Below, in pieces: positions 16,147-57,020 of a DNA stretch of 60,588 nucleotides; position 1 is the first letter of the stretch; the number at the start of each line of letters is the position of its first letter. Source of the stretch: Candidatus Omnitrophota bacterium (GTDB taxonomy: Bacteria; Omnitrophota; Gorgyraeia; JABMRN01; RBG-13-46-9); assembly GCA_043817155.1 (NCBI GenBank), contig JBDRHE010000075.1, forward strand, positions 1 to 60,588, read 5' to 3'. Made by a program: the position numbers and the translations under genes. The notes beneath the pieces are model-generated. The model had not been told where the DNA came from, ran no database searches, and worked only from the letters and a program-made list of their open reading frames with translations.

Positions 16147-16183
16147 GGAAATACGATCGTTTAAGGCAACCAGGACAACAAAG

Positions 16184-17461: not shown

Positions 17462-17514
17462 GATATACTTTCTGTACAGTCACCACGTTACCCGTTAACG
17501 GAAGATTCACACGT

Positions 17515-17757
17515 TATGACGGACGATGGACGAAAGACGATGGACGATTCAATTCCCTCGTCTTTGCGAGGCACCGTAAAATTCGAGCGTGCCGAAGCAA
17601 TCTCATTCGAGCTAGTTTGAGATTGCTTCGGTGCGCTAACCTGTTTACGGCACCTCGCAAAGACGAGATAGCGCGAATCACCCTTTGTCCCTCTTCCATC
17701 ATCCATCTTAAGTTTACTATTAAATTCACGTCTCATGTGTCTTGTGTCCTTGTGTCG
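17515..17757. repeat. GACGATG arms around an F1 in the opposite orientation (17557-17667), plus a CTTGTGTC arm
   Basis: The ggcac/gtgcc arm comes first and the ggtgc/gcacc arm second; empty loop. Confidence 0.92.
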
Positions 17758-17780
17758 TAGATAAAAATAGGGTTTGCATT

Positions 17781-18242
17781 ATGAAGATCAGAGAGGCAAT
17801 GACAAAAAACGTCGTGAAGGTCGCGCCGTCAACAGGTATACGCAATATATACGATCTCTTTTGCGAGAAACAGATCGGCTGTGTTCCCGTTGTGAATGGC
17901 GACAATAAGATCGTCGGCATGGTAACCAAGACCGAGATCCTGGATGTCCTGATACCGGACTACTTTGGCATGGTCAGCGATTTTCTATTTATTGATGATT
18001 TCGGAGCGCTGGAAAAGAAACTGGAATCTCTTCCCGTTCTAGAACTCTTCCTGGCTGAGGATCTTATGGAGAGAGACGTCATTACTATAAACGAGAACGC
18101 GTCTTTAGTTAAGGCGCCCGTTCTAATGAATAAACACAATTTGAGAAGACTTCCGGTTATAGATAAAGATGGCACGCTCGTCGGTATAATATCAAAGATG
18201 GATGTCTGCAGGGCGCTTTTTAAAGACAGGGGCACAGAGTAA
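17781..18242 (+). CDS. CBS-pair domain protein
   Basis: From ATG 17781; two CBS repeats (VPVVNGDNKIVGMVT, LPVIDKDGTLVGII). Confidence 0.88.
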   Translation: MKIREAMTKNVVKVAPSTGIRNIYDLFCEKQIGCVPVVNGDNKIVGMVTKTEILDVLIPDYFGMVSDFLFIDDFGALEKKLESLPVLELFLAEDLMERDVITINENASLVKAPVLMNKHNLRRLPVIDKDGTLVGIISKMDVCRALFKDRGTE

Positions 18243-19513: not shown

Positions 19514-19546
19514 TTACGCAACCGCAACCGAAAAACGAGTTAGAAT

Positions 19547-20599
19547 ATGTATAGTGCAAAGCAATATATAACCGACCTGATGCGTGATAGAAAGAACGAT
19601 CCCATATCGAAAGTCATAAAATATCTTCTGTTATTGGTCTCCCATTGCTATAACCTGATCGTAAAAGCGAATCTCTTCCTTTATAGCTCCAAAATGCTTA
19701 AGACCTATAAAGCGGATGCCGGCGTTGTCAGCATCGGTAATATTACATTGGGCGGCACAGGCAAGACTCCTTTTGTGATAATGCTGTCCAAGCTGCTTGC
19801 CGAAAACAAGAGACGTCCCGCTGTACTTATAAGGGGATATGGAGAAGATGAATGGAAATTGCTTGAGGAGAGATTGGGTAGGCTCGGTACAAAGATCTTC
19901 GTGGGAAGGGACCGTATAAGGAATGCAAAGGAGGCCCGGAAACAGGGCGCTGATACCCTTATTATGGATGACGGGTTTCAGCACATTCGCTTGGAAAGGG
20001 ATCTAAATATAGCGCTGATCGACACCACAGATCCGTTCGGTAACAGGCATCTCTTCCCAAGGGGTATCTTAAGAGAGCCAATCGCTAATCTGAAGAGGGC
20101 TGATCTTATAGCTTTAACCAAAGTTGATAACGCCCGGTCTCTAAACACTATAGAGGAAGAGATAAGGCGTATCGTTCCGGATAAGCCCGTTATTAAGACC
20201 TCTCACAGGGTAAGGGAGATAATCGATCTCGAAGACCGTAGCGTAAAAAAAAGTGATTTTATAAAAGGAAGAAAGGTATGCATCCTTTCGGCAATATGCG
20301 ATCCATCTTATTTTAAATACACTGTAGAGCGCCTCGGGGCCTTAGTAGGACACGAGGGCATCTTCCCCGATCACTTCGTATACAGGGTCACGGACATTAT
20401 TGATATCCGGAAAATATGCAAAAAAGAGAACATTAGGTACATAGTTACAACAGAGAAGGACGCTGTAAAGCTTAAAGGATTAACATTGCCCGGGGACGGA
20501 TGTAGAATTCTTGTATTGTCGATAGACCTTGAGATAATCGAAGGGGGAGAAGCGCTGAATGATGCACTACGTAGACTATATATGCGCAATTCTGGTTAA
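19547..20599 (+). CDS. lpxK: Tetraacyldisaccharide 4'-kinase
   Basis: SIGNITLGGTGKTP, DDGFQH, GILREP, FPDH and VTTEKDAVK. Confidence 0.95.
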   Translation: MYSAKQYITDLMRDRKNDPISKVIKYLLLLVSHCYNLIVKANLFLYSSKMLKTYKADAGVVSIGNITLGGTGKTPFVIMLSKLLAENKRRPAVLIRGYGEDEWKLLEERLGRLGTKIFVGRDRIRNAKEARKQGADTLIMDDGFQHIRLERDLNIALIDTTDPFGNRHLFPRGILREPIANLKRADLIALTKVDNARSLNTIEEEIRRIVPDKPVIKTSHRVREIIDLEDRSVKKSDFIKGRKVCILSAICDPSYFKYTVERLGALVGHEGIFPDHFVYRVTDIIDIRKICKKENIRYIVTTEKDAVKLKGLTLPGDGCRILVLSIDLEIIEGGEALNDALRRLYMRNSG

Positions 20600-22502
20600 G
20601 ATATTCAGTTTGGTCTTCTATGCCGTGCCCCTGAGGTTAACGCTCTGGCTGGCCGGGATGATCTCTCGGCTTGTGTACACAGTTAATGTGAGCAGACGGG
20701 TGATCTGCTATGCCAATCTTCGCGCGGCTTATTTTAAAGATAAGTCACCACGCCAGTTAAAGAGACTGACCAGAAAGACTTATAAAAGCCTGGTCCGGAC
20801 CTTCTTTGAAATACTATCACTTCGTAAAGTAAATGCGGATTACGTGAGTAAATATGTCGAAATAGTGAACCTGGATAATATGATGAAGATAAAAGATCAT
20901 CCAAACGGGGTGATACTTTTGACCGCGCATTTTGGCAACTGGGAGCTCTCCGGAATGGTAAGCGCGATAAAAGGATTTCCGCTCTATGTGCTTGCCAGGG
21001 AACAGAAGATGAAGAAGCTTAATGAGCTGATAAACAGATTAAGGCAGTCCAAGGGCCTTACGGTTGTGACTAAGGGCGCGACGACAAAATATATTGTCAA
21101 GGCACTCCATCAGGGGAAGATGATAGGTATGGTGGGTGATCAGGATGCCGGCAAAGCAGGAATCCTCGTTCCGTTTTTCGGTAGGCTCGTATCAACCGCG
21201 CCGGGTTCGATGAGGATCGCGGCAAGAACCGGGGCGTATGTGCTGCCGGCGTTCATAGCAAGGGTGAAAGGCCCCTACCACAGATTGATACTGGAAAGCC
21301 CCATGAAGATCGAAAGAGGGGATGAAATAAAGCCGTATCTCGAAAGATATAATAGATTGCTTGAGAAGTATGTAACGATCTATCCCGACCAGTGGCTGTG
21401 GTTGCACAAGAGATGGAAATCGACGCCACTTAAGAGAGTTATTATCTTAAGTGACGGGAAACCGGGCCACTTAAATCAGGCAAAGGCTTTTTGCAAAGAA
21501 CTTACGCGATATAGAGTAGATTTCGGGTATGAGGCGCGGGATACCGAAGTAAGCATCATAGATGTAAAATTCAGAAATGTATTTGCAAAGGCGCTGGTCA
21601 ATTTTTTAAGCATCTTTGCGTGCAAGAGCTGCCAGGGGTGCATGCGCTGTCTTAAGTTTTGCATGACAAAAGAGTCATATGAGGATCTCGTGGGCAGACA
21701 CGCCAACATTGTTGTAAGCTGTGGATCGGGAGTAGCGGGCGTCAACAGAATATTTTCGATAGAGAATAGTGCAAAGAGCGCAGTGGTCATGAAACCCCCG
21801 ATGATCGGTCTTGGCAAGTTTGATATGGTGGTACTGCCGTGGCATGACGCCAGGGGCAACGAGGGCGAGAATGTGATCGTTACAGATACTGTACCCAATT
21901 TAATAGACGAAGAATATCTTGCCCTGTCCCGGCAGCGGATCCTGGGGCAAGTGAGCTCGGATAGACCAAAGAGGCTCGGGGTTCTTTTAGGCGGAGATAA
22001 CTCTGATTTTAAGTTGACCCACGAGATAGTGGACCGGCTACTTAGCAACGTTATAAGCGCGGCAAATAAGCTGGACGCCGACCTCTTGTTTACAACCTCG
22101 CGCAGAACCCCGAAATGGGCTGAGAAGATGGTTAAAGAGACCCTGAGATCGGAGAAGAGGTGTAAATTTTTGGTATTATCGAATGAAAATAATGTTCCCC
22201 ACGCCGTAGGGGGGATACTGGGACTTTCCGACATAGTGGTCGTCTCCGGTGAGAGCGCATCGATGGTTTCGGAAGCCATCTTTAGCGGAAAGCCGGTCGT
22301 CACATTTGCATTAAAGAGGGCCAGGCGTGGAGGGTCCAAACTGGAGAGGATGCTGACCCGCTTGAAGGAGAAAGGTTATGTCTCTATAGCGAATACTGAA
22401 AAATTGTCCGATGCGATATGCGAGAGTTATCAAAACACAGCCGACAGGAAGATACCACAGGACAGGCACGATGTCTATAAGTATATGTGGCGGGTTTTGT
22501 AA
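20559..22502 (+). CDS. Fusion: LpxL/HtrB-family acyltransferase plus ELM1/GtrOC1-family domain
   Basis: N-terminal half has TAHFGNWE, GDQDAG and PDQWLWLHKRWK; C-terminal half has LSDGKPGHLNQ, LLGG, TTSRRTP and ESASMVSEA. Confidence 0.85.
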   Translation: MMHYVDYICAILVKIFSLVFYAVPLRLTLWLAGMISRLVYTVNVSRRVICYANLRAAYFKDKSPRQLKRLTRKTYKSLVRTFFEILSLRKVNADYVSKYVEIVNLDNMMKIKDHPNGVILLTAHFGNWELSGMVSAIKGFPLYVLAREQKMKKLNELINRLRQSKGLTVVTKGATTKYIVKALHQGKMIGMVGDQDAGKAGILVPFFGRLVSTAPGSMRIAARTGAYVLPAFIARVKGPYHRLILESPMKIERGDEIKPYLERYNRLLEKYVTIYPDQWLWLHKRWKSTPLKRVIILSDGKPGHLNQAKAFCKELTRYRVDFGYEARDTEVSIIDVKFRNVFAKALVNFLSIFACKSCQGCMRCLKFCMTKESYEDLVGRHANIVVSCGSGVAGVNRIFSIENSAKSAVVMKPPMIGLGKFDMVVLPWHDARGNEGENVIVTDTVPNLIDEEYLALSRQRILGQVSSDRPKRLGVLLGGDNSDFKLTHEIVDRLLSNVISAANKLDADLLFTTSRRTPKWAEKMVKETLRSEKRCKFLVLSNENNVPHAVGGILGLSDIVVVSGESASMVSEAIFSGKPVVTFALKRARRGGSKLERMLTRLKEKGYVSIANTEKLSDAICESYQNTADRKIPQDRHDVYKYMWRVL

Positions 22503-22700
22503 ACTAAAGACTAAAAACTATAGACCATCGTTCGTGTCCAAATGAGTTGTACCATATCGACGGAAATAGCGTTTTGACATTCGAAACTTTGTCATGACTG
22601 CTTTTCTCACATGTCATCCCCGCGCAAGCGGGGATCCAGGCGAGAGTTTTGTCTGGATTCCCGCTTCCGCGGGAATGACAAAAAGCTAATTTGGACAGCA
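22502..22700. repeat. AGACTA-type arm and a free-standing F2 palindrome (22613-22679) inside a short gtccaaat/atttggac inverted repeat
   Basis: gtcatccccgcgcaagcggggatcc ... ggattcccgcttccgcgggaatgac. Confidence 0.9.
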
Positions 22701-22726
22701 ATGATAGAACATAGTAAACTAAAAAG

Positions 22727-24847
22727 ATGAATATACTGCAAGTTGTTTCGAAATTGGATACGAGCGATAGCGCGCAGGATGTAATAGCTGCTACTAGATT
22801 CCTTACACTTAACGGGCATAAGGTAGTTGTAGCGGCGCAGTGGAGCACGTTAGTTAAGCAGATAGATGAGGTTGGGGCGCGCTACTATGGGATGCCTGCA
22901 ACGCAGAACATATTATTTGTGCCTTTTGCGATATACAGGTTGTATAAGATCATTCTAAGGGAGAATGTGCAAATCGTACATTCGAGGGATCCCATATCCG
23001 CTTTTATATCTTTCTTTGCTTCACGATTGTCGGAGAAGACTTTCGTCGCTACGATATATGACTATCACAAAAGGAATTTTTCTAGAAGGGCGCAGTTCTG
23101 GGCAAAACGTATAATATGTTTCAGTGAGAGTGACGCGCATATCCTGGTAAAGAGGGGCCTGGCGCTTCAGGATAAGATCCGGGTAATACCGCCGTTTGTC
23201 GAAGATGGGACCTCGACAGGGCAACACCGCTCCTACAATAAAGCCGGTACACCTGAAGGAACGCGTGAATATCGGAGCCGCTTCGTAGTGGAAGCGGCAC
23301 TTCCGCTCTCTTCCCAGGAAGCAACGCAGAGTTTTATTAAAGCCGTTTCAATACTGTCCAGGACCATCCACAAGATGAAGGTCTTTGTGATAAACAGCGC
23401 ATCTTTGCATGAAAAAGATTCCGTAGAAAAGATGAAGCTTCTTATTACAAGGCATTCCCTGAATAACGTTGTAACCTATTTGCCTTACGGGAAAGATGAT
23501 CTGCTTGCCCCGGAGATCAATCTATTTGTTCAGGTCAACACCGAAGAGAACCTGTCGGTGCGCTATCTACTTTTGGCCCAGGCTCGCGGTATACCCGTGG
23601 TAACTACTCATGTTGATAGGATAAAGGATTTTACAGGGGGCAATAGAACAGCGGTCGTGTGCAATAGGGATAACCCGCAAGAGATGGCTTCCAAGATGCT
23701 CGATCTCTACAGGAACGAAGAATTGCAAAGAGCGATAGTAGGAGAGGCGAAGAGTTTTGTGAGCGAGAATTTCAATATAAAAAAGGTAATGAAGACTACT
23801 TTGGATCTTTACGAAGATGTTGTCGCAAGCAGGAACATACTTGTGATAAAGATAGGCGCGCTGGGGGATGTGATCCTCGCGGCACCCTCCATAAAAGCCT
23901 TGAGAAAGAAATTCACCGGGGCAACGATAAAACTTCTTGTCGGGATGGAACACAGAGATATCTACTCAAACTCACCCTATATTGACGAAATAATAGTCTA
24001 TGATTTCAAGCAGCGCGATAGTGGCATATCCGGGATCTTGCGTATTGCCAGGAGACTGCGCGGGGAGAATTTTGACATGGTAGTGGACTTCCAGAATAAT
24101 AAGAAGAGTCACCTGCTTTCGTTCCTTTCCTGCTGCCCCAAGAGATACGGTTATGACAATGGTAAGCTGAGTTTTCTCCTCAATAGAAAGATCAAGGATA
24201 AAAAGATCCCCACAGGTCCGATAGAACACCAGGAGAAGGTTCTGGCCCTTTTGGGAATATATAACATAGATAAGAAACTGGAATTATGGCCATCTAAAAA
24301 GGATGAGGAATGGGCAGATAGCTTCCTTAAGTCTCACTGGGTGACGGAGGGCACGAAGCTGGTGGCTTTCAATATCGGCTCCAGTCCCAGATGGATGACC
24401 AAGCTTTGGCCGCTTGAATACTTTGCGGACGTATCTAACAGGCTTACCAGGAACCTCGGTATCAGGGTGATGCTTATAGGTAGCGAGTCCCGCGATCCCA
24501 GGGCAGAAGAATTCATGGATAAAGTAAAATGTAGGCCCATTATGGCGATGGGTAAGACCAGCATATCGAAGCTCGTCTCTCTTATCAAAAGGTGTGACCT
24601 TTTGCTAAGCTCGGACTCGGCTCCCATGCATATCGCGGCAGGGACGGGCACGCCTTTTGTAGCTCTCTTTGGCCCCACAGATCCCGCAAGGCACGTGCCG
24701 CCGGCGATGAATTACAGAGTGATCAAAAAGGACATACCGTGCGCACCGTGTTACAGCGCATCCTGTGATAAAGGGATTGTATGCATGAGCGAAATCAGAC
24801 CCGAAAAGGTTTATAGGTCCATCTTAAAGTTACTGGAAATAAAATGA
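22727..24847 (+). CDS. Fusion: degenerate GT4-like glycosyltransferase plus GT9 heptosyltransferase-like domain
   Basis: N-terminal half has a GT-B layout with AQARGIPVVTT; C-terminal half has IKIGALGDVI, DSAPMHIA and LFGPT. Confidence 0.85.
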   Translation: MNILQVVSKLDTSDSAQDVIAATRFLTLNGHKVVVAAQWSTLVKQIDEVGARYYGMPATQNILFVPFAIYRLYKIILRENVQIVHSRDPISAFISFFASRLSEKTFVATIYDYHKRNFSRRAQFWAKRIICFSESDAHILVKRGLALQDKIRVIPPFVEDGTSTGQHRSYNKAGTPEGTREYRSRFVVEAALPLSSQEATQSFIKAVSILSRTIHKMKVFVINSASLHEKDSVEKMKLLITRHSLNNVVTYLPYGKDDLLAPEINLFVQVNTEENLSVRYLLLAQARGIPVVTTHVDRIKDFTGGNRTAVVCNRDNPQEMASKMLDLYRNEELQRAIVGEAKSFVSENFNIKKVMKTTLDLYEDVVASRNILVIKIGALGDVILAAPSIKALRKKFTGATIKLLVGMEHRDIYSNSPYIDEIIVYDFKQRDSGISGILRIARRLRGENFDMVVDFQNNKKSHLLSFLSCCPKRYGYDNGKLSFLLNRKIKDKKIPTGPIEHQEKVLALLGIYNIDKKLELWPSKKDEEWADSFLKSHWVTEGTKLVAFNIGSSPRWMTKLWPLEYFADVSNRLTRNLGIRVMLIGSESRDPRAEEFMDKVKCRPIMAMGKTSISKLVSLIKRCDLLLSSDSAPMHIAAGTGTPFVALFGPTDPARHVPPAMNYRVIKKDIPCAPCYSASCDKGIVCMSEIRPEKVYRSILKLLEIK

Positions 24848-25947
24848 AAGTACTACTTTTAACGACACATCTCAACATAGGCGGGGTGGCAAGGTATACC
24901 GTTAATCTTGCGCAGGGTCTTAAAGAGAGGGGCATAGAGGTCTACGTCGCGTCTTCAGGCGGAGATCTCGTTGATACACTGAATAAACATTCCATACAGC
25001 ATATCCCGGTGAGCGTTAATACAAAATTTGAATTTAATCCAAAACTCATCCTTACACTCTTCAAACTGCTTGCATTTGTAAAGAAGAAAGATATTACCCT
25101 GGTACATTCGCAGACACGTGTCACCCAGGTCCTGGCCTGCTTTCTATCGCGTTTTAGCGGGATCGCATACGTCAGCACCTGCCACGGTTTTTTCAAAAAG
25201 AAGAGACTGGGGAGAAGGCTGTTAGGCGCATGGGGCAGATTTGCGATCGCCATAAGCGATGTGGTCAGGGAGCACTTAATAAAGGATCTTGGCGTGAAGA
25301 AGGAGAACGTGTTCTTGATATATAATGGCATAGATACGAAGACATTTGATGCCGCCAGGGTCAGGGACGCCGGCAGGCTATTAAAGGATAACCTGGGTTT
25401 TACCAAATTCCCTGTCATCGGTTCAGTCTCCAGGTTATCGCCGGTAAAGGGGTTGCGCTATCTTCTCTTCGCCATGAAAGATCTGCTAAAAGATATGCCT
25501 GAGGCGCAACTCCTGCTTGTAGGAGACGGGCCGTCGAAGGAATCCCTATTGGGACTTGCGCGTAAACTGGGTATCGAAAGCAATGTCTTCTTCGCGCAGA
25601 GTACTATGCAAACAGAGAAATTCCTGTCGATCATGGATATATTTGTATTCTATTCGCTGGAAGAGGGACTCGGGCTTTCACTCCTGGAGGCTCTTGCGGC
25701 GGAAAAGCCTTGTGTGGCTTCTGATGTGGGAGGCGTCTCTTCCATTATAGAAAATAATGTAACGGGTATTCTCGTCCCCCCGCGCGACGCCCACTTGCTG
25801 AAAGAGGGAATCGTAAAGCTCCTCAAAGATCCCAAGCTCGCTTCCGGGATGGCCAGGAATGGGCGGGAATTGGTACAGAGGAAATTCTCTCTGGAGGGAA
25901 TGGTAGCGAGGGTTGTAGAAGTTTATGAAAGAGCGATCAATGAATAA
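24844..25947 (+). CDS. GT4 family glycosyltransferase
   Basis: GGVARY, IYNGID and EGLGLSLLEALAAEKPCVASDVGG (EX7E motif). Confidence 0.92.
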   Translation: MKVLLLTTHLNIGGVARYTVNLAQGLKERGIEVYVASSGGDLVDTLNKHSIQHIPVSVNTKFEFNPKLILTLFKLLAFVKKKDITLVHSQTRVTQVLACFLSRFSGIAYVSTCHGFFKKKRLGRRLLGAWGRFAIAISDVVREHLIKDLGVKKENVFLIYNGIDTKTFDAARVRDAGRLLKDNLGFTKFPVIGSVSRLSPVKGLRYLLFAMKDLLKDMPEAQLLLVGDGPSKESLLGLARKLGIESNVFFAQSTMQTEKFLSIMDIFVFYSLEEGLGLSLLEALAAEKPCVASDVGGVSSIIENNVTGILVPPRDAHLLKEGIVKLLKDPKLASGMARNGRELVQRKFSLEGMVARVVEVYERAINE

Positions 25948-26736
25948 AAGATCAATTGCTCTTATTGCAGCTGTAGCGGTGATTGCCGCGCTTTTTTTTG
26001 CGGGAAGCAGCTTCCTTTCTAATATATATGTCCCGGCTATTCTCATGTACCACTCTGTGGGAGAAGAAGGCACGGCGCTCGATGGATACGGGCCAAAACT
26101 TAACGTACGCACCAAAACATTCGCAAAACAGATGAAGTTTCTGCATGAGTCGGGTTACGATGTTATACCGCTATCCGATCTTGTCGAAAGGATAAAGAGC
26201 GGAAAGAGGATACCGCGCAAGACAGTGGCGATCACATTTGACGACGGCCTTAAGAATAATTTTTATAATGCCTATCCGGCGCTAAGAAGATATGGTTTTC
26301 CCGCTACGATATTTGTCGTAACCGATTTTATAGGTACCGAAAAATTCCTTACGAGAGATGATATTATCACCATGCAGGAAGATAACGTTATAGTTGGAAG
26401 CCATACTGCATCGCACAAGTGGCTCCCGTCCCTACCGGAGGAACTTGTAAAGAGAGAACTCGGCGAGTCGAAGAGGAGCCTGGAGTATATAACAGGACGC
26501 GAAGTAAAAATACTATCGTATCCCCTGGGCGGATTTGATGAGAGGTCAAAAGATACGCCAAAGAGGCCGGATATAAAGGCGCGGTAGCGACAAATCCAGG
26601 CAAGGCAAAGAGACCCTATGATCCGTATGCCCTTAAGAGGGTACGCATATCAATGACGTCAGATAATCTCTTTACATTCTGGTTCGAGACGAGCGGTTAT
26701 TATACTTTTATCAAGGAGTGGAGAGACGAGGACTAG
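25940..26736 (+). pseudogene. Polysaccharide deacetylase (NodB family) with a one-base frameshift near 26544
   Basis: LMYH, ITFDDG, GSHT and SYPLG motifs; the family-typical tail (AGYKGAVAT...LKRVRI) continues in another frame to TAG 26734-26736. Could be a sequencing error. Confidence 0.8.
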
Positions 26737-26753
26737 CAACAGCTTAATCATAG

Positions 26754-26866
26754 AAAAACCAAAGACCAAAAGGTAAAAACCAAAAACACATATTAAATAT
26801 GAAAAAATATTTTTTTTGCATTTTTGGTTTGTATTTTTGGTATTTGGTATTTAATTTTTAATTTTT
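26754..26866. repeat. AT-rich AAAACCA/TTTTGGT periodic palindrome (F7)
   Basis: Second copy at 31775-31905; shared core aaaacacatattaaatatg. Confidence 0.88.
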
Positions 26867-26879
26867 CGATAATTCGATC

Positions 26880-27917
26880 ATGAAAGACTATAAGCGTATA
26901 TTAATAGTCGAGGTAAACTGGCTGGGGGACGTTCTATTCTCCACCCCGCTCGTAAAGGCGATCCGCAAAAAATATAAAAACGCCTATATAGCCTGCATGG
27001 TTGTTCCCCGTTGCAGGCAGATCCTGGAATACAGCCCGTACATCGACGAGATCATAACCTATGACGAAAAAAAAACGCACAGAAGCTTGTTCGGTAAAAT
27101 ACGTTTGATCGCTATTCTGAGAAGAAGAGATTTCGATCTTGCTATACTGCTGCACAGGTCCTTTACAAGGGCCCTTATTGCGATGCTTGCGGGTATAAGG
27201 GAGCGTATCGGCTACATAACGGAGAAGGGACACAGGATGCTTACGCGCCCGATAGAGCCGCCCGAATCCCCGGTTCACAAGGTGGAGTATTTTTTGAAAC
27301 TGGCCGAGTCACTGGGATGCGATATATCTAATAAGGATTATGATTTTTTTATTAGCGACAGAGAGAGAGATCACATAAATAAGGAACTCTCTTTGGCCGG
27401 GATCGAAAAAGAGGACCTTCTGGTTGTAGTGAACCCGGGCGGCAATTGGCGATCAAAGAGGTGGAGCGAAGACAATTTCGCAAAGCTCTGCAAGGCGCTG
27501 TTTGAAAAATTTAATATAAAGATCGTGATATCGGGAGCGAAGAAGGATGTAGAGCTTGCTTCGCGAATAAAGGAGAAAGCAGGTCCTGATATATCGGTCT
27601 TTGCCGGCAAAACGGACCTAAAAGAACTGGGCGCTCTTATGGGGAGGGCCAATTTTGTTATTTCAGCCGATTCAGGACCTATGCATATAGCTGTAAGTAT
27701 GGGGTCGAATGTAATAGCTCTCTTTGGACCGACTTCTCCCGAGCTTACCGGTCCTTACGGGAACGGTAACTACAGGGTGATCCGGAAGAATACGGAGTGC
27801 GAAACCCCGTGTTACGACGTAACGTGTAATGACCATAGGTGCATGGATTCTATAACTGTAGAAGATGTGCTGGAGACGTTTGAAGAGATGTACTGTGCAC
27901 AGATGGGAAAGAAGTAG
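26880..27917 (+). CDS. waaF: GT9 lipopolysaccharide heptosyltransferase II-like protein
   Basis: VNWLGDV, HKVEYF, NPGG, KRW, DSGPMHIA and LFGPT. Confidence 0.85.
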   Translation: MKDYKRILIVEVNWLGDVLFSTPLVKAIRKKYKNAYIACMVVPRCRQILEYSPYIDEIITYDEKKTHRSLFGKIRLIAILRRRDFDLAILLHRSFTRALIAMLAGIRERIGYITEKGHRMLTRPIEPPESPVHKVEYFLKLAESLGCDISNKDYDFFISDRERDHINKELSLAGIEKEDLLVVVNPGGNWRSKRWSEDNFAKLCKALFEKFNIKIVISGAKKDVELASRIKEKAGPDISVFAGKTDLKELGALMGRANFVISADSGPMHIAVSMGSNVIALFGPTSPELTGPYGNGNYRVIRKNTECETPCYDVTCNDHRCMDSITVEDVLETFEEMYCAQMGKK

Positions 27918-27980
27918 AGAGTAGCAAGTAGCAAGTAGCGAGAAGGACTCTCTCTACTCTCTACTTGCTACTCGCTACTT
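27912..27980. repeat. F5 AGTAGCG periodic palindrome
   Basis: Matches 9632-9696; contains the stop codon of the upstream gene. Confidence 0.93.
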
Positions 27981-27989
27981 AAAGAAAAT

Positions 27990-28979
27990 ATGGCTAATAT
28001 TAACAAGTCTAAAGTTAACCGTATACTTGTCATAACCCTTTCGAACATAGGGGATATCATCCTGACCACCCCGGTCGTGGAAACTCTACTCCGGGAATTC
28101 CCGGGAGTAAGACTCGATGTTATGGTTGGCCCTAACGGAAAGGATCTCTTCGGTCCTCACAAGGGAATAGGGGAGATAATTATTTATGACAAGAGATCGT
28201 CTTCCCTGGATAAATTCAAGCTCTTTATCATGCTTAGAAAGAAGCGATATAATCTTGTCGCGGATCTGCGCAATACTATTTTACCTTTAGTGCTGGGCGC
28301 CAGGTTCAATACCAGCGCCATCAGGCGCGATTCCAAGAATGGGATGCATAGAAAAGATGTTCACCTTTCAAGATTAAGAGACTTGTCCATAGACACATCG
28401 CGCGGCAAATTTTATATCCCGGTCAGAGAAAAGGACAAAGAACGGGTGGGTGCTTTGCTCGGCGAACTTAAAGAGAGACCATATGTAGTGGTAAGTCCGG
28501 GCGCAAAGAGCCATGTTAAAAGATGGCCCTTGAAACACTTTGCAAAACTCTGCGATATGATAAAGATAAAACTCAGAGTTGATGTCGTTCTTATAGGAGA
28601 CGAGAGCGACAGGGTCGTTATAGAAAGAATTCTCTTTAATGCCGAGACGAAGCCGCTTAACCTTATAGATAAAACAAATATAGGCGAGCTCGCTTACATG
28701 ATCAAAAGGTCGAAACTATTGATCACTAATGACAGCGCTCCTTTGCATGTGGGTAGCGCAGTCAATGCGCCGACGGTCGTCTTTTTTGGCCCTACCGATG
28801 ACCGGAAATACGGCCCTTTGACAGAATCCGGAAGCAGAGTGCTTAAGAAGAAGCTGAAGTGCTCGCCCTGCGAAGTACCGCAATGCATAAACTACGATAA
28901 CAAATACGAATGCCTGAAGACGATTACTGTTGAAGAGGCCTTTGAAGCTGTTAAGGAGCTATTGGATAGCGCTACATAG
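27990..28979 (+). CDS. GT9 family glycosyltransferase
   Basis: LSNIGDIIL, SPGAK, KRWP, NDSAPLH and FFGPT. Confidence 0.9.
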   Translation: MANINKSKVNRILVITLSNIGDIILTTPVVETLLREFPGVRLDVMVGPNGKDLFGPHKGIGEIIIYDKRSSSLDKFKLFIMLRKKRYNLVADLRNTILPLVLGARFNTSAIRRDSKNGMHRKDVHLSRLRDLSIDTSRGKFYIPVREKDKERVGALLGELKERPYVVVSPGAKSHVKRWPLKHFAKLCDMIKIKLRVDVVLIGDESDRVVIERILFNAETKPLNLIDKTNIGELAYMIKRSKLLITNDSAPLHVGSAVNAPTVVFFGPTDDRKYGPLTESGSRVLKKKLKCSPCEVPQCINYDNKYECLKTITVEEAFEAVKELLDSAT

Positions 28980-29370
28980 GACGAAGGATGATTTGACGAT
29001 ACCGGAAATACGATTGATATACAATTGAAATACATTGAAATGCGATGGAGATACGATTGAAATATGGTGGAAATGCAATCGAAGCTACATTACTCGTCTT
29101 TGCGAGGCACCGTAAATAGCTGAGCGCATTAAAACGACTTCTCTTCGTCTTTGCGAGGAACCTATGAAAGCTTTATGTTCCGAAGCAATCTCAGACTTCT
29201 GTCATCCCCGCGCAAGCGGGGATCCAGAGTGAACTCGTTGAGAGTACATCCATGGATTCCCGCTTCCGCGGGAATGACAACTTTAGATTGCTTCGGCACG
29301 CTCGAATCTTACGGTGCCTCGCAAAGACGAGGGAAAATCTAATCGTCCATCGTCCGTCATCCATTGTAAC
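28975..29370. repeat. Composite: GACGAAG arms around a 10-mer TTGAAATAC run, two F1 left arms (29093, 29145), F2 (29201-29278) and an F1 right arm ending at 29331
   Basis: The F2 plus right arm is nearly identical to 5923-6050. Confidence 0.93.
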
Positions 29371-29379
29371 GAGTTAACT

Positions 29380-30408
29380 ATGCGTATACTTTTAACCAGA
29401 ACCGATCGTATCGGAGATGTCGTACTATCCACACCGGCGATAAAGGCTGTCCGGGATAAATACCCGGATGCGTACATTGCATTTATGGTAAGGCCGTACG
29501 CGCGGGATGTCGTTGAAGGTAACCCGTATATCGACGAGGTTATTATCTACGATAAATACGGCGAGCACAAGAATCTGCTAAACACTGTCCTGTTCGCCAT
29601 ATCCTTAAGGAAGAAGAGATTTGATCTGGCCATAATGCTCCATCCTACGAATCGGGCGCACATGATAGCTTTTGCTGCCGGCATTTCAAGGAGAGTGGGT
29701 TACGACAAGAAGCTGTCGTTCTTGCTTACCGAAAGGGTTCCCCACCTTAAACAGGAAGGCAAGAAACATGAATCGGAATACACGCTGGATCTCTTAGAAA
29801 CCATTGGCATAAGGGCAAAAGGAAGAGAGCTCTTTCTACCCTTGAATGACAGGGATATTAAGAATATCGAGAATACCTTAAGCGAATACCATTTGGGCCG
29901 TGAGGCCCTGCTTATCGCGGTAAACCCAGGGGCCAGTTGTCCTTCAAAGCGATGGCGCCCTGAAAGCTTTGCTAAGGTTTGCGATGGCCTTGCTGAAAAG
30001 TATAAAGCGAGGATAATAATTGCTGCCGATGCCTCAAATAGTAGATTTGCGGATATCCTGGCCGGCAAAATGAGATACGAACCTGTCAACCTGGCCGGGA
30101 AGACGACGGTTGGAGAACTGGCCGCTTTGCTTTCAAAATGCGATCTCTTTATATCCAATGATTCCGGGCCCGTTCACATTGCCTGTGCAATAGGCACCCC
30201 GACAATCTCTATTTTCGGGCGTGGGGATCCCGGGCTTTCTTCGGAGCGATGGGGGCCCATCGGGAAGGAAACCAGGGTTTTTCATAAAGATGTCGGTTGC
30301 GATCCCTGCCTTGCCCACAACTGCAAGATCGGCTTTAAATGCCTGGAAGCTATTACCCCTGAAGAGGTGCTCTCCGCCGCCGAAGAACTACTATTTCCGG
30401 CAGTATAA
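29380..30408 (+). CDS. GT9 family glycosyltransferase
   Basis: From ATG 29380: RTDRIGDVVLS, NPGASCPSKRW and NDSGPVHIA. Confidence 0.9.
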   Translation: MRILLTRTDRIGDVVLSTPAIKAVRDKYPDAYIAFMVRPYARDVVEGNPYIDEVIIYDKYGEHKNLLNTVLFAISLRKKRFDLAIMLHPTNRAHMIAFAAGISRRVGYDKKLSFLLTERVPHLKQEGKKHESEYTLDLLETIGIRAKGRELFLPLNDRDIKNIENTLSEYHLGREALLIAVNPGASCPSKRWRPESFAKVCDGLAEKYKARIIIAADASNSRFADILAGKMRYEPVNLAGKTTVGELAALLSKCDLFISNDSGPVHIACAIGTPTISIFGRGDPGLSSERWGPIGKETRVFHKDVGCDPCLAHNCKIGFKCLEAITPEEVLSAAEELLFPAV

Positions 30409-30445
30409 AAAGCATTTCTAACAGAGTCAGAATGAAAATATACCT

Positions 30446-30652
30446 GGCGAAAGAGAAGGAGAGTCTTCTTCAGGCTTAGGCATAAAAGATTATGCTAAGA
30501 TTCTCTCTTCTTGCCTCTTTAATAAGGCGATCGTCGGTTTTTAAGGAAATGCCGTAAGCCAAGACATACGTATACCTGGAATACCGACTCTCACCTTGTA
30601 AAGAGACAAAGAGAGAATATGCGCCTGAAGAAGACTCTCCTTCTCTTTCGCC
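30446..30652. repeat. 207-bp long hairpin element, copy 1 (perfect 30-bp terminal inverted repeat)
   Basis: 30446-30475 is the exact reverse complement of 30623-30652; the inner arms also pair; homologous to 56796-56995. Confidence 0.9.
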
Positions 30653-30725
30653 TAATTTCCAAATAGCAGGATACAAAAGTGTAACGCAACCCTTCTAATG
30701 GTATAACGGGAGCGATTTATAGTAA

Positions 30726-30755
30726 TTGACAATGTAAGATTATATATGCTAAAAT
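30726..30755 (+). promoter_or_regulatory. Sigma70-type promoter with extended -10 upstream of rfaE1
   Basis: TTGACA (30726-30731), 18-nt spacer, TGc-TAAAAT (30750-30755). Confidence 0.7.
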
Positions 30756-30763
30756 CATCGCCT

Positions 30764-31777
30764 ATGAAAGGACAAAATTTCAAGAAGCTGAAGAGCGTTA
30801 TTTCCAACTTTAATGACAAGAAGATACTTGTCATAGGGGACCTTATCCTGGATGAGTTTATATGGGGAAAGGTCTCTCGCATATCGCCCGAGGCGCCCGT
30901 CCCGATTGTCTGGGCGCAGAGCGAGAGCTTCATGCCGGGCGGAGCTTCTAACGTTGCAAACAATATAAATTCGCTTGGCGGCAAGGCTTATATGGTAGGT
31001 GTGGTTGGCAATGATGACCGTGCAGGCATCTTAAAAGGGGAGCTTGAGCGCAGGGGTGTTAATGTGGATGGTATATTTTCGGATGCCCAAAGGCCCACGA
31101 TCCTTAAAACACGGGTAATAGCCCATCAGCAGCAGGTTGTCCGTATTGACCGGGAAAAGACAGAGCCTGTAAGCGACCGGATATTAAGGAAACTTACGGA
31201 CTACATAGAGAACATAATAGACAGCATGGATGCGCTGATCGTGGAAGACTACGGGAAAGGGTTAATTACCCCGAAGCTTCTCGATAAGATAGTACCCCTG
31301 GCGAAGAGAAAGAAGAAGATCATAGCTGTCGATCCCAAGGAAGAGCACTTCTCTTTTTACAAGGGAGTTACGCTCTTAACCCCGAATAACGCGGAGGCTT
31401 CCCGCGCTGTAGGATTCGAAATAAAAGACAAAGCAACGCTAAAGAGAGCCGGCAGTGAACTTCTGAAAAAGCTAAAAGCGCGCATAGTTCTGATCACACT
31501 CGGTGAAGATGGGATGATGCTGTTTGATGACGGGAAGCCGGCCAGGAAGATAGAGACCATTGCCCAGGAAGTCTTCGATGTCTCAGGAGCCGGCGATACC
31601 GTTATAAGCAGCTATACTCTTTCACTGATTTCAGGCGCCAGTACGATCCAGGCAGCTCATATTGCCAATTGCGCTGCGGGGATAGTCGTAGGCAAGGTCG
31701 GTATAGCCGTCGTGACTCAGGACGAGGTCATTATGAGGATTAAAGAGGAGATCGAAAAGCCGAGGGAACGAACTTAA
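30764..31777 (+). CDS. rfaE1: D-glycero-beta-D-manno-heptose-7-phosphate kinase (RfaE domain I)
   Basis: GDLILDEF, RISPEAPVP, PGGASNVA, TPNNAEA and DVSGAGDTV. Confidence 0.93.
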   Translation: MKGQNFKKLKSVISNFNDKKILVIGDLILDEFIWGKVSRISPEAPVPIVWAQSESFMPGGASNVANNINSLGGKAYMVGVVGNDDRAGILKGELERRGVNVDGIFSDAQRPTILKTRVIAHQQQVVRIDREKTEPVSDRILRKLTDYIENIIDSMDALIVEDYGKGLITPKLLDKIVPLAKRKKKIIAVDPKEEHFSFYKGVTLLTPNNAEASRAVGFEIKDKATLKRAGSELLKKLKARIVLITLGEDGMMLFDDGKPARKIETIAQEVFDVSGAGDTVISSYTLSLISGASTIQAAHIANCAAGIVVGKVGIAVVTQDEVIMRIKEEIEKPRERT

Positions 31778-31905
31778 AACCAAAAACCAAATACTAAAAA
31801 CAAAAAACACATATTAAATATGTAAAAACTTGGTAAATTACAAATTAAAGATTTTAAAATTTTTGGTTTGTGTTTTTAACTTTTGGTATTTAATTTTTAA
31901 TATTT
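31775..31905. repeat. F7 AT-rich periodic palindrome, copy 2
   Basis: Homologous to 26754-26866. Confidence 0.88.
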
Positions 31906-31943
31906 CATTAAAGCTACACAAGCTGTAAAGAAAGGTTAGAGCA

Positions 31944-32735
31944 ATGAGAGCTATAGGAATTATTCCCGCCAGATGGAAGTCATCGAGATTTGAAGGAAAG
32001 ATACTCGCAAACCTGCTCGGCAAGCCCATGATACAGCATGTTTGGGAAAGGTCTAAAGAGTCCAGGATGCTGGATGACTTGATAGTTGCAACGGACTCAG
32101 AGGAGGTAATAAAGGTAGTAGAGAGTTTTGGGGGCAAGGCTCTTTATACCTCCAAGGATCAGCCGTCAGGTACAGACAGGATAGCAGAAGTTGTAAACCC
32201 GATAGATACCGAGATCATCATTAATATACAAGGTGATGAACCGCTCATTCACCATACAATGATCGATAGCCTGGCGGAGTCTCTTTTGGAAGATAAGACA
32301 ATACCGATGGCAACGGTAATAAAGAGAATAACCGATAAGAAAGAGATATTGAATCCAAATGTGGTCAAAGCCGTTATTGACAAGGATGGGTACGCGCTCT
32401 ATTTTTCGAGAAGCCCGATACCTTATCTCCGCAAGGACGAAGATCACCATTCTATTTTAGATGTACAGTCCTGGCTCTCGCATCACCAGCCCGTAGATGC
32501 GTTTCAGAATTACTATAAGCACATAGGCATATACGCTTATACCAAGGACTTCATCTATACCTATACCAATTTGCCGAAATCCAAACTTGAGGAGATGGAA
32601 AAGCTTGAGCAACTGAGAGCGCTCGAGGGCGGGTTCAGGATAAAGACGGTTTTAACCGAGTTCGATACCGTAGGCGTTGATACCCCGGAAGATCTAAAGA
32701 AGGTGGAAGATATGTTAAGAAGGGGGCCTAGATGA
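31944..32735 (+). CDS. kdsB: 3-deoxy-manno-octulosonate cytidylyltransferase
   Basis: IPARWKSSRFEGK, SGTDRI, NIQGDEP, HIGIYAY and KLEQLRAL. Confidence 0.96.
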   Translation: MRAIGIIPARWKSSRFEGKILANLLGKPMIQHVWERSKESRMLDDLIVATDSEEVIKVVESFGGKALYTSKDQPSGTDRIAEVVNPIDTEIIINIQGDEPLIHHTMIDSLAESLLEDKTIPMATVIKRITDKKEILNPNVVKAVIDKDGYALYFSRSPIPYLRKDEDHHSILDVQSWLSHHQPVDAFQNYYKHIGIYAYTKDFIYTYTNLPKSKLEEMEKLEQLRALEGGFRIKTVLTEFDTVGVDTPEDLKKVEDMLRRGPR

Positions 32736-33544
32736 GGGAAGTGAGAGTAGGCAAGATCAGGATAGGTGGCAAGAATCCCGTAGTTCTAATTGCCGGGCCG
32801 TGCGTTATCGAATCTGAAAAGAGTACCTTGCGCCATGCAAGAGCCATAAAAGAGATAGCCGATAAATTAAATTTTCCATTCATCTTTAAATCCAGCTATG
32901 ATAAGGCAAACAGGTCATCCATCAAGTCCTATAGGGGTCCGGGCCTTAAAAAGGGATTGGCTGTGCTTGCTAAGGTAAGAAGCCTACTCGACATCCCCGT
33001 TATTAGCGACATTCACTCGATCGAAGAGGTGAGATCAGTTAGGAGGGTCCTGGATATTATTCAAATACCGGCATTTCTTTGCAGGCAGACAGACCTTATA
33101 TTAGCGGCCGCAAGGACGAAGAAGCCCATAAACATAAAGAAGGGACAGTTTCTCTCTCCGATGGAAGTAGGGAATATCATAGCGAAGGCTGAGCATGCAG
33201 GGAACAGGAATATATTGATCACTGAAAGGGGTACGAGCTTTGGGTATAATATGCTAGTAAGCGATTTCCGCTCTATCCTCATCATGAAGAGATTTGGCTA
33301 TCCTATTTCATATGATGCAACGCACTCCGTGCAGCTTCCGGGCGGATTGGGAACTAAGAGTGGTGGCCAAGCTGAGTTTGTGCAGCCGCTTGCAACGTGC
33401 GCGGTTCTATGCGGAGCGAGCGCGATCTTTGTGGAGGTGCATGAAGACCCTCGCGAAGCCTTAAGCGACGGACCAAATATGATCAAACTGAGCTCGCTTG
33501 AGAAATTCTTAAAGAAGATAAAGGAAGCCGAGAGCATAAGGTGA
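32732..33544 (+). CDS. kdsA: Kdo-8-phosphate synthase
   Basis: AGPCVIE, KSSYDKANRSS, QIPAFLCRQTD, KKGQF and DATHSVQLPG. Confidence 0.96.
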   Translation: MREVRVGKIRIGGKNPVVLIAGPCVIESEKSTLRHARAIKEIADKLNFPFIFKSSYDKANRSSIKSYRGPGLKKGLAVLAKVRSLLDIPVISDIHSIEEVRSVRRVLDIIQIPAFLCRQTDLILAAARTKKPINIKKGQFLSPMEVGNIIAKAEHAGNRNILITERGTSFGYNMLVSDFRSILIMKRFGYPISYDATHSVQLPGGLGTKSGGQAEFVQPLATCAVLCGASAIFVEVHEDPREALSDGPNMIKLSSLEKFLKKIKEAESIR

Positions 33545-34512
33545 AGAGATCAAAGAGCATAGAAGGGGCAAAGAGGGTTCTGAATATTGAAGGCAACGCC
33601 ATCCTGGATCTTGCCAAGAGGATCGATAAGAGCTTCGATGCAATTATAGAGTTCCTGTTTAAGATCAAGGGCAGGGTTATTGTCACGGGCATGGGAAAAC
33701 CCGGTTTTATCGCGCAGAAGATATCAGCGACTCTTTCGTCTACCGGTACGCCGTCTCTCTATCTGCATCCTGCGGAGGCATTACATGGGGATCTGGGCAG
33801 GGTGACGAAAGATGACTGTCTTTTGGCTTTCTCCAACAGCGGCCAGACCGAGGAGATAGTGAAGTTACTACCCATCATAAAGAAGATCGGGGCCCGCCTC
33901 ATAGCCGTTGTTGGCAATACGGGCTCAACATTGGCAAAGAACGCGGATTATGTACTGGATGTCTCAGTTAAAAGGGAGGCCTGTTCGCTGGGCCTGGCCC
34001 CAACCACATCTACGACAGCCATGCTTGCGGTCGGGGACGCTCTTTGCGTTAGCCTGCTGGACAAGAAAGGATTTAAGGAGAAAGATTTCGCATTTTATCA
34101 CCCGGGCGGTACGCTTGGCAAGAGAATGCTGCTGAAGGTAGAGGATATTATGAGGTCCGGACGCGATAACCCAATTGTTAAGGAGAACTCTAAGGTCAAG
34201 GATGTGCTTTTAAAGATCACGAGGGCAAGGGCGGGGTCTGCGAGCGTAGTGAACAAAAGCGGCGCCCTGACAGGCATATTTACTGATGGCGATCTAAGAA
34301 GGCATTTAAGCGAGAAGGTGAATATCGCCGCTAAGAGAATAAAGGATGTAATGACAAGAGCTCCCATCACGATCACGAAAGACCGGCTTGCCGCAGAGGT
34401 GTTCCAGATCCTCCGCTCAAAGAAGATAGACGAGATCCCTGTAGTGGATAAGAGAGGAAGACCCATTGGTCTTATAGATGTACAGGATATTCTAAAAGCC
34501 GGGCTTGTCTAA
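33541..34512 (+). CDS. kdsD: Arabinose-5-phosphate isomerase (KpsF/GutQ family, SIS plus CBS)
   Basis: GMGKPG, HPAEALHGDLG, APTTST, HPGG and two CBS domains. Confidence 0.95.
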   Translation: MKRSKSIEGAKRVLNIEGNAILDLAKRIDKSFDAIIEFLFKIKGRVIVTGMGKPGFIAQKISATLSSTGTPSLYLHPAEALHGDLGRVTKDDCLLAFSNSGQTEEIVKLLPIIKKIGARLIAVVGNTGSTLAKNADYVLDVSVKREACSLGLAPTTSTTAMLAVGDALCVSLLDKKGFKEKDFAFYHPGGTLGKRMLLKVEDIMRSGRDNPIVKENSKVKDVLLKITRARAGSASVVNKSGALTGIFTDGDLRRHLSEKVNIAAKRIKDVMTRAPITITKDRLAAEVFQILRSKKIDEIPVVDKRGRPIGLIDVQDILKAGLV

Positions 34513-34535: not shown

Positions 34536-34850
34536 AAGCTACGAAGGGCGTGGGATGATTAGCACTATCTCGTCTTTGCGAGGTGCCGTAAATAAATTAG
34601 CGCACCGAAGCCCCGCCGCATGTTTCGCATAGCGGGATCCCGCCATACGAGAGTAACGGCGGGACAATCTCAAACTTCTGTCATCCCCGCGAAAGCGGGG
34701 ATCCAGAATAGGCGCGTAGAGAGTCCATCCATGGATTCCCGCTTACGCGGGAATGACAAGATGCATTAACCTGAGAATACTTCGGCACGCTCGAATCTTA
34801 CGGTGCCTCGCAAAGACAGTTAGGTTAATATCTAGTCGTCCATCGTATCG
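34536..34850. repeat. Composite: GACG-type arms around F1 (34569-34817), with a 54-bp double hairpin in the left arm (34611-34664) and F2 (34680-34757) in the loop
   Basis: cgaag[cccgc...gcggg a tcccgcc...ggcggga]caatctc. Confidence 0.92.
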
Positions 34851-37275: not shown

Positions 37276-37288
37276 AGAAATATTGCGA

Positions 37289-37422
37289 AAGTAGCAAGTA
37301 GAAAGTAGCCCTTCGCTTCGCTCAGGATCCCTCGAAGAATTCATCGAAGGATCCCGAGAGAATCGAGGGAGAAGTAGCGAGAATCTCTCTACTCTCTACT
37401 CTCTACTTGCTACTCGCTACTT
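37289..37422. repeat. F5 palindrome interrupted by a CCCTTCGCTTCGCTCAGG...TCGAGGGA hairpin cassette (about 37309-37370)
   Basis: Compared with intact F5 copies at 9632 and 27912. Confidence 0.88.
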
Positions 37423-37437
37423 TCGGAAAGAGATGTT

Positions 37438-40832: not shown

Positions 40833-40860
40833 TATAATTTGTCTTCCGATAATACACGTA

Positions 40861-41034
40861 AAGTAGCGAGTAGAGAGTAGCAAGTAGCAAGAAAGACTCA
40901 CTCTACTCTCTGCTTGGCATTTTGAAGGATACGCTAAAAGAGATATATATACACAGATGAACAAGTAAGTAGCGAGAAGAGAGTAGCAAGTAGCAAGAAA
41001 GACTCACTCTACTCTCTGCTTGCTACTCGCTACT
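40861..41034. repeat. Two direct F5 copies separated by a 49-bp diverged copy of the aminotransferase 3' end
   Basis: 40912-40960 matches 44052-44100 at 46 of 49 positions. Confidence 0.92.
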
Positions 41035-41050
41035 TTAAAAAGAATAAAAA

Positions 41051-47411: not shown

Positions 47412-49362
<1,951 letters not shown>

Positions 49363-49540: not shown

Positions 49541-49584
49541 GTGTAGTATTGATTACGTTTGTGCACAATAAAAAAGGAGAGTAA

Positions 49585-51708: not shown

Positions 51709-51717
51709 TGCGCTCCA

Positions 51718-56630: not shown

Positions 56631-56795
56631 ACCCCGCCTCCCAATAGTCTTATTCTACCAGGCTTAGCTTGTGTCCCAACTTTGAGCGCGCGTTTAAGCC
56701 GGACAGAGATTCTGTCAGCCGAAAGATTTTTGACCGCCTCCGGCAGTCACCGTCTCTTCTCTTTTTGTTTAACCGAGCAAGACATGCTGTTAGTA

Positions 56796-56995
56796 AGAGA
56801 CAATGGGGCATTATTTTAAGGCTCAGCATAAAATGTTATGCCAAGATTCTCCCCTCTTGTCTCTTTATAAGGTGATCGTCGGATTAAAGGAATTGCCGTA
56901 AGCCAAGGCACACGAAAACCTGGAATACCGACTCTCACCTTGTAAAGAGACAAAGAGAGAATATTCGCCTTAAAAGAACGCCCCATTGCCTCTCT
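56796..56995. repeat. Long hairpin element, copy 2
   Basis: 46 identical nt with copy 1 (56919-56964 equals 30575-30620); its own terminal arms match each other at 24 of 27 positions. Confidence 0.88.
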
Positions 56996-57020
56996 CTAGA
57001 GGTCTCTTAATACTCAGAAA

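Follow-up and report, generated by a model that had tools for sequence, protein, structure and literature searches.

The window, the whole 60,588-nt contig analysed here, is core chromosome of a Candidatus Omnitrophota bacterium, and open reading frames together with Pfam annotation place every real gene across its 60 kb on the + strand. It carries two copies of an intergenic hairpin, each oriented like the genes around it. Copy 1 (30446-30652) sits between a GT9 heptosyltransferase gene that ends at 30408 and a gene for a PfkB-family sugar kinase, and copy 2 sits between rseP, which ends at 56630, and ispG (GcpE/IspG), which starts at 57449; all four neighbours are + strand genes recognised by Pfam. 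The kinase fits the kinase domain of RfaE, in keeping with an earlier note that, from the sequence alone, had placed rfaE1 and ispG downstream of the two copies. IspG finds its best matches, at 66-69% identity, in MAGs of Omnitrophota, while the protein of the window itself stands alone on the 60,588-nt contig. The interval 16094-34512 is a large LPS inner-core cluster on this Omnitrophota contig, with a Kdo transferase, LpxK, LpxL-like acyltransferases, four genes of the GT9 heptosyltransferase family, the RfaE-type kinase, KdsB, KdsA and a KdsD-like SIS-CBS protein. No transposase, RAYT or parent IS was found among the 49 open reading frames of the window scanned with Pfam, the sole recombinase being a XerC/D-like protein.

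A near-consensus promoter-like site (TTGACA-18-TAAAAT, 30726-30755) lies 75 nt 3' of copy 1 and a weaker one (57399-57427) lies ahead of ispG; given these two sites, the genes 3' of the hairpins are probably independent of read-through. The former, which over 30726-30765 reads as a sigma-70-type site with a TG extension and an 11/12 match, overlaps the first ATG of the kinase frame (30746), and the true kinase start is probably the ATG at 30765. An exact-protein look-up of this downstream frame returned no record, probably because its start codon had been called differently. The association of the hairpins with envelope and isoprenoid genes looks incidental; in five related genomes rseP and ispG are not separated by any spacer.

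That the window holds a genuine repeated hairpin of about 200 nt, as the earlier note proposed, is confirmed in both copies. In copy 1 the arms (30446-30475 and 30623-30652) are complementary at 30 of 30 positions with 147 nt between them, which agrees with the perfect 30-bp terminal inverted repeat described before and makes them the longest perfect inverted repeat in the window. In copy 2, 24 of the 27 positions of the arms (56796-56822 with 56967-56993) are paired by manual count, the mismatches being two A.C and one A.G; weaker pairing carries them to 56791-56822 and 56967-56998 (32 nt, 84%), with a further A.C and a T.T mismatch in the full alignment to 56791/56998. The two copies align by blastn at 87% (30469-30634 against 56816-56977). 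Inside the arms of each lies a core that is itself an imperfect hairpin, bounded by GGC and GCC (30473..30625 in copy 1 and 56820..56969 in copy 2, both on the + strand). The core stem common to the copies runs GGC-GCAT-ATTCTCTC... on the left and ...GAGAGAAT-ATGC-GCC on the right; the core ends read GGCTYAG... and ...CGCC, the sole CGTC being internal (30531-30534), and a centre TTnAGGC/GCCTnAA is common to both window copies. A cognate IS would be expected to share the ends GGCTYAGGCATAAAA... and ...GAGAGAATATKCGCC.

Only the left half of the core carries a side hairpin, GCATAA-AAGA-TTATGC in copy 1 (GCATAAAAGATTATGC, 30480-30495, + strand) and GCATAAAATGTTATGC in copy 2 (56826-56841, + strand), with identical stems and a difference in the loop alone. 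The apical motif GCCGTAAGCCAAG recurs on the + strand at 30551-30563 and 56895-56907, so that the side hairpin and central loop are kept in both copies, as had been noticed. The right inner arm of the core is a block with the same letters in each (30574-30620 and 56918-56964, + strand); the identical stretch had been given as 46 nt and is in fact 47 nt long. Folding is far more stable than that of shuffled sequence, with z-scores for copies 1 and 2 of -14.2 and -10.7 on the + strand and of -14.0 and -11.3 on the - strand. Open reading frames in the core are inconsistent in frame and without a match in the protein database, and neither six-frame translations of the element nor, separately, those of the CTCGTC... 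repeat matched that database. Searches of the window by short-word blastn and by a covariance model with its filters switched off gave no third copy.

What is repeated is the core of about 150 bp (GGC...GCC), and the outer arms of 27-29 nt lie outside it. Homology between the copies stops in blastn about 7 nt into the arms. When the arms are aligned semi-globally, left against left is matched or beaten by 4039 of 5000 shuffles and right against right by 3748 of 5000, and 75% of random 25-mers from the window align as well as the outer arms of the two copies do. The outer arms (30446..30472 and 30626..30652 in copy 1, the right being the exact reverse complement of the left; 56791..56819 and 56970..56998 in copy 2) are unrelated, locus-specific sequences, each paired only within its own copy. 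They cannot then be products of stepwise compensatory evolution, and the earlier description of them as diverged versions of each other does not hold, there being no detectable homology beyond the 7 nt or so next to the core. A likeness of the arms to the basal stem of the core, as if by tandem junction or targeting of the element's own end, was considered and is not counted as established: the left arm of copy 2 stands out (28 of 3000 dinucleotide shuffles), and the other three arms give 401-534 of 3000.

How the arms meet the core is the same in both copies. The flanks are inverted, extend 27 and 29 nt beyond GGC/GCC and abut the core exactly, without a junction loop, so that the arms have their dyad exactly at the core ends. 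No consistent direct target-site duplication was found around either the whole hairpin or the core when the boundaries were moved by +/-4 nt; the check for target duplications proposed in the earlier note thus yields inverted flanks instead of direct repeats.

Further copies of the core are present in run X1, a biofilm metagenome taken as contigs, in which the organism is about 3x deep; only X1 (word share 0.30-0.51) and X3 (0.05) hold the organism among the runs checked. Among the X1 contigs are five or more additional left halves of the core and two right halves, no two with the same flank; the contigs break inside the core, so that no contig spans a whole copy and only halves can be read. 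On the left these contigs part from the window at 30472-30480 (copy 1) and 56819-56822 (copy 2), on the right at 30625/30626, and X1 shows no repetition of the arm sequences as such. The depth summed over contigs is 11-27 over the core, at most 1 over the arms and about 3.5 over neighbouring single-copy DNA (0.24 for the left arm of copy 1 against 11-22 for its core; 0.23 for the left arm of copy 2). The contrast in depth and the departures at fixed boundaries identify the core as the repeated unit and the arms as specific to each locus. The element is therefore short, non-coding and multi-copy, with two copies in the window and halves with other flanks in X1, and its copy number appears to be low, around ten. 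Within the 47-nt block no difference is listed at 30587-30595 in either right-half contig, and the one of these contigs that was also aligned to copy 2 has at most three unlisted differences across its two end zones, the 3' part of the block being one such zone. In one X1 contig the left end of the core is fused to an inverted end of the neighbouring hairpin repeat (57018-57250), a second family; the junction corresponds to window position 57209, within the 9-nt loop of a 7-bp hairpin, GTTACCT-AATCAAGTG-AGGTAAC.

It is conceivable that the palindromic flanks were created by metagenome assembly through the repeat. At the two native loci the arms are known from the assembled contig and are essentially uncovered in the only DNA run that contains the organism (depth 0.23-0.87 in X1), and the 30 nt of each copy 1 arm correspond to k-1 in a graph of 31-mers. 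However, the mismatches in copy 2 mean that its arms are not exact k-mer copies, and the contig runs on past each right arm in the correct orientation into syntenic genes, a continuation that a graph fold-back would not give. Moreover, the organism has a depth of only about 3x in X1, where long unique stretches in the vicinity are likewise uncovered. Such an artefact is, in our view, highly unlikely.

Comparison with related genomes places the element in DNA that other Omnitrophota do not have. We used six loci from five related Omnitrophota (L004-L009, 89 kb), which share the order serA...purA-hppA-ompA-uppS-cdsA-dxr-rseP-ispG-proS or the part of it that their contigs reach, L006 lacking ompA. 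The rseP and ispG frames overlap by 4 nt in five of the six loci and are separated by 31 nt in the remaining one; at this junction the window has an 818-nt spacer that holds the copy 2 element and one or more other repeats. Further spacers within this block measure 222, 401 and 142 nt in the window against 6-20 nt in the relatives and hold repeats too (the expanded spacers relative to L004-L009 are 49362-49585, 51708-52110, 52751-52894 and 56630-57449). By these comparisons, the window's lineage has undergone marked intergenic expansion by repeats. The element is not found at the orthologous rseP/ispG junction in any of the six loci, and the covariance-model search for homologues suggested earlier, which gave nothing further in the window, also found no match in the 89 kb from the five relatives. 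Exact scans of GTDB representative genomes for ACCGACTCTCACCTTGTAAAG and CACCTTGTAAAGAGACAAAG and of viral contigs for ACCGACTCTCACCTTGTAAAG found none, and since these scans need exact 20-21-mers they could miss diverged relatives; three matches of CACCTTGTAAAGAGACAAAG in JGI metagenomes were rejected as chance, and plasmids gave no match in the distant mode of blastn. The nearest IspG is 69% identical, so that no close relative offers an empty site. The element is absent from the relatives and sits in lineage-specific spacer DNA. As the window shows neither a transposase nor a target-site duplication, it is copy number, varied flanks and absence from relatives that suggest a mobile element. 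That it is a selfish dispersed repeat at all is, in our view, likely.

The earlier note took the paired divergence of the arms to imply selection on the fold, and one may still ask whether the element is a structured non-coding or cis-regulatory RNA whose long stem is under selection while its outer stem may vary in sequence provided that pairing is kept. Both copies have a very stable fold, the stem of the side hairpin is conserved with a changed loop, the 47-nt block is invariant and both copies follow the orientation of the surrounding genes. However, a large z-score is expected of any long palindrome, and the covariation that can be seen does not appear to favour selection on the fold. RNAalifold on the two copies reports seven pairs changed on both sides, of which four lie in the outer arms, in columns that align non-homologous sequence, two (columns 24/189 and 27/186) lie in the roughly 7 nt of the arms that still align next to the core, and one is a real exchange of A-U to U-A in the apical stem of the core. 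These last three speak for an RNA, in a test that is weak because it has two sequences only; the remaining differences in the core fall in loops or change one side of the stem while the partner arm is invariant. With unrelated arms and core differences that are mostly one-sided or in loops, the inference of selection on the fold is not supported. Nor is the strand evident: the - strand folds 7-13 kcal/mol better than the + strand, and mismatches of the G.U type number 5 on the + strand and 7 on the - strand, which leaves the strand undecided.

Other features expected of an RNA gene are similarly scarce. Rfam gives 0 matches over the whole window at gathering thresholds and, at E up to 10, only noise from miRNA-type hairpin models (12-20 bits against thresholds of 70-95), so the earlier statement that the element resembles no recognised RNA family stands even under permissive settings. 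The scanned regions contain no promoter-like site conserved inside both copies and no terminator-like site, and the conserved 47-nt block holds no outward promoter with acceptable spacing. In the groundwater metatranscriptome run X2, a single 162-nt contig is 100% identical to 30654-30815, its start lying 2 nt beyond the hairpin base of copy 1; the position could reflect a stop of reverse transcriptase where the hairpin is transcribed, or a processed end, or it could be due to chance. This one contig is the RNA evidence, and none of the other RNA runs checked holds the region. Finally, the element is missing from the translationally coupled rseP/ispG junction and the 89 kb of the relatives, and it is multi-copy with unrelated flanks. 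A structured RNA under selection for its fold is, on this balance, distinctly unlikely.

The window contains several other palindromic repeats. An abundant composite family, more REP/BIME-like than the hairpin element, has at least ten copies (3761-3985, 5844-6070, 7653-7990, 11040-11270, 15880-16163, 17553-17700, 29093-29340, 34541-34837, 44160-44290 and 49423-49540). It is a REPIN/BIME-like doublet of inverted modules, CTCGTCTTTGCGAGG - small hairpin - GAAGCAATCTCA, in which the stem of the inner hairpin varies (GGCAC/GTGCC, GGTGC/GCACC, GGAAC/GTTCC); changed on both sides between copies, these inner hairpins are a better case of covariation than the two-copy element. The outer CGTC of the doublet recalls the CGTC-tagged REP superfamily (PMC3733652). 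A GC-rich palindrome, TGTCATYCCCGCGnAAGCGGGRATCCAG...CTGGATYCCCGCTTnCGCGGGRATGACA, occurs at 5918-6007, 11165-11254, 15951-16050, 22608-22686, 29196-29285 and 34675-34764; in five copies it lies exactly at the dyad of a doublet, at 22608-22686 it stands alone, and three doublets are without it. Long intergenic palindromes with arms of tandem heptamers or octamers, the unit differing by locus (AGTAGCG, ATAGCGN, ATAAGCY, TAGCTTNT, AAAACCA), lie at 1-57, 1800-2043, 4594-4699, 9625-9703, 10883-10988, 26755-26880, 27912-27980, 31756-31911, 37283-37428, 40859-41037 and 51718-51937 and often stop a few bases before a start codon. Directly 3' of copy 2 is a second hairpin repeat (57018-57250) with terminal repeats AGAAGAAGAACAGAATTCA, inner arms of 24 bp, a GC-rich tip hairpin and a z-score of -11.9; it is multi-copy in X1 with conserved terminal repeats, the classical MITE layout, unlike the two-copy element. 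Sequence about 87% identical to 56693-56762 is present again in X1. In this genome, it seems to be a rule that palindromes are nested at the tips of hairpins.

It is possible that the core inserted into existing palindromes, at their tip or dyad, so that the arms are the halves of an older local palindrome. A transposase or single-stranded DNA intermediate that targets hairpins would resemble the IS elements that insert into REP sequences, and several IS families have been documented to use REP palindromes as hot spots (PMC1525189; PMC12288879). This genome is full of long, locus-specific palindromes and of modules placed exactly at the dyads of others, as with the GTCATYCCCGCG... module inside CTCGTCTTTGCGAGG... 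doublets, present in five copies and absent from three doublets; the core boundary joined to 57209 in X1 falls inside a hairpin loop; and the shared centre TTnAGGC/GCCTnAA could be the consensus of a target. However, the spacer-less targets with arms of 27-29 bp that this requires have no counterpart in the window, whose heptamer palindromes are 74-88% complementary and of a different sequence character. The insertion must also hit the exact axis of symmetry twice, and as the rseP/ispG junction of the relatives holds no palindrome, one must first have arrived there. Although possible, insertion into older palindromes is on the whole doubtful.

A more appealing scenario is that the palindrome grew outward after the core had arrived. 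We infer that a core hairpin would land first, after which the nascent DNA strand would fold back on itself, copy about 27-30 nt of the adjoining flank and return to its template, such that intrastrand template switching extends the palindrome outward in one step. The arms at each locus would then be a local inverted duplicate, perfectly paired where the event is recent (copy 1, 30/30) and carrying a few transitions where it is older (copy 2), and any effect at the RNA level, such as a long stem in an operon transcript, would be a by-product. It is reported that template switching homogenises and expands the arms of inverted repeats and makes perfect stems in a single event (PMC13100816, PMC8794818, PMC7202029). 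In favour of copying, the 60 kb contain no perfect palindrome with arms of at least 12 nt and a spacer of at most 6 nt, and the window has no empty palindrome centred on AGGCCT or GGCGCC. Fold-back copying would explain perfect complementarity, the exact dyad and the specificity of the arms to their locus together, and it is the explanation we prefer. The earlier note had offered arm-to-arm copying as an alternative to selection, and as an origin of the outer arms that idea is viable and the one adopted here; as a continuing process across the core it is not, for the core arms are not being continually homogenised against each other, given that mismatches, bulges and the side hairpin are the same in both copies. 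Without ongoing homogenisation, the perfect outer arms reflect discrete events.

Several observations temper this proposal. Both arm pairs come from the only two complete copies that can be read, two independent extensions of nearly equal length (27-30 nt) are a coincidence if the process is purely mutational, and the many palindromes nested at each other's dyads in this genome suit targeting of hairpin tips. The copy 1 right arm ends in CGCC, like the end of the core; microhomology at the point of return from the template switch was considered and dropped, the copy 2 palindrome running past the corresponding point. For the combined statement, that the element is a lineage-specific selfish hairpin repeat of the MITE/REPIN/ERIC kind whose arms arose by fold-back copying, we estimate a probability of roughly 0.45.

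Perhaps transposition itself duplicates some 27-30 bp of the target in inverted form, for example when a hairpin-shaped single-stranded DNA intermediate primes fold-back synthesis on the target, and every copy would then have inverted flanks specific to its locus. Both readable copies do have near-equal inverted flanks (27 and 29 nt) with no junction loop and no direct duplication of the target. The right inner arm, with its 47 identical nucleotides, is far better conserved than its pairing partner, most of the listed differences between the copies falling in the left arm and the apical region, an asymmetry that may point to recognition of one strand, in the manner of single-stranded DNA transposons. 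Against this, there are two observations only. The four or five left flanks in X1 match neither of the two right flanks as reverse complements, a result that is uninformative at this sampling, as the estimated chance of no overlap is about one in three even if all copies are palindromic. We know of no bacterial element in which an inverted target duplication leaves such a signature, and both the general proposal and the particular route by fold-back priming are unlikely. The broader proposition that a mobile hairpin regularly makes a 27-30-bp inverted duplication of its insertion site, be it in transposition or in fold-back replication, is rather unlikely as well. If it were true, the palindrome would extend itself into host DNA and every copy would have a perfect outer stem specific to its locus, and strand-specific recognition of the single-stranded form would account for why one inner arm is so much better conserved. 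Inverted flanks as a rule of the element family would amount to a new mechanism of insertion or palindrome extension; if they are not the rule, the element is one more lineage-specific hairpin repeat.

Under fold-back copying or otherwise, these copies carry a caution for RNA discovery, since stems that differ between two copies and yet pair in each can arise without selection on the fold, here because the arms are unrelated local palindromes. In the genome of the window, compact and translationally coupled operons have been split by hundreds of bases of nested hairpin repeats, which makes it a good natural system in which to follow the spread and growth of palindromic selfish DNA.

Among known systems, hairpin MITEs such as Correia/NEMIS of Neisseria, ERIC/IRU of enterobacteria and RUP/SPRITE of pneumococci are an obvious comparison. 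The element resembles them in being about 150-200 bp long, non-coding, intergenic and multi-copy, with the whole unit an imperfect palindrome, and in lying inside operons along the direction of transcription, restricted to one lineage and missing in relatives. Reviews are available of bacterial MITEs with a long hairpin fold that are transcribed together with the operons they lie in (PMC3184786, PMC10969869). Unlike these, the element has no direct target-site duplication of fixed length, its outermost inverted repeats are not common to the copies, which share the imperfect stem of the core alone, and no parent IS or transposase was found in the window. The earlier proposal of a non-coding RNA or a MITE was thus broadly right in its second half, in that the element is MITE-like, and did not bear out in the strict sense of shared ends and direct duplication.

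REP, BIME and REPIN elements are mobilised by RAYT transposases of the Y1 HUH type (PMC3116915, PMC3333891, PMC2817692, PMC3733652). The element is like them a hairpin-forming intergenic repeat, these repeats acting as single-stranded DNA and forming mosaics with other palindromic modules, and the unequal conservation of its two arms would fit strand-specific recognition. It differs in being longer than a REPIN, in lacking a GTAG or CGTC tag at its ends, in the absence of a RAYT gene from the 60.6-kb window, and in outer arms that are not homologous between copies, as those of REPINs are. IS elements that insert specifically into REP palindromes, such as ISPpu9, ISPpu10, ISPa11, ISPsy8 and IS1397 (PMC1525189, PMC12288879), offer another parallel, in that a host palindrome ends up with one half on either side of a mobile element. 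Those, however, are full elements with transposase genes and a conserved, repeated target palindrome, whereas the palindromes that flank the hairpin copies are unique sequences.

The likeness to template-switch mutation at quasi-palindromes and to inverted-repeat expansion (PMC7202029, PMC8794818, PMC13100816) is that both sides of a stem change in one event and that a stem can be lengthened perfectly without selection at the RNA level. To our knowledge, bacterial cases of template switching involve a few nucleotides, and none is known with an extension of 27-30 nt seeded by a mobile hairpin. By analogy, the element groups with the small palindromic intergenic repeats (Correia, ERIC, RUP and REPIN) and may be said to work like them.
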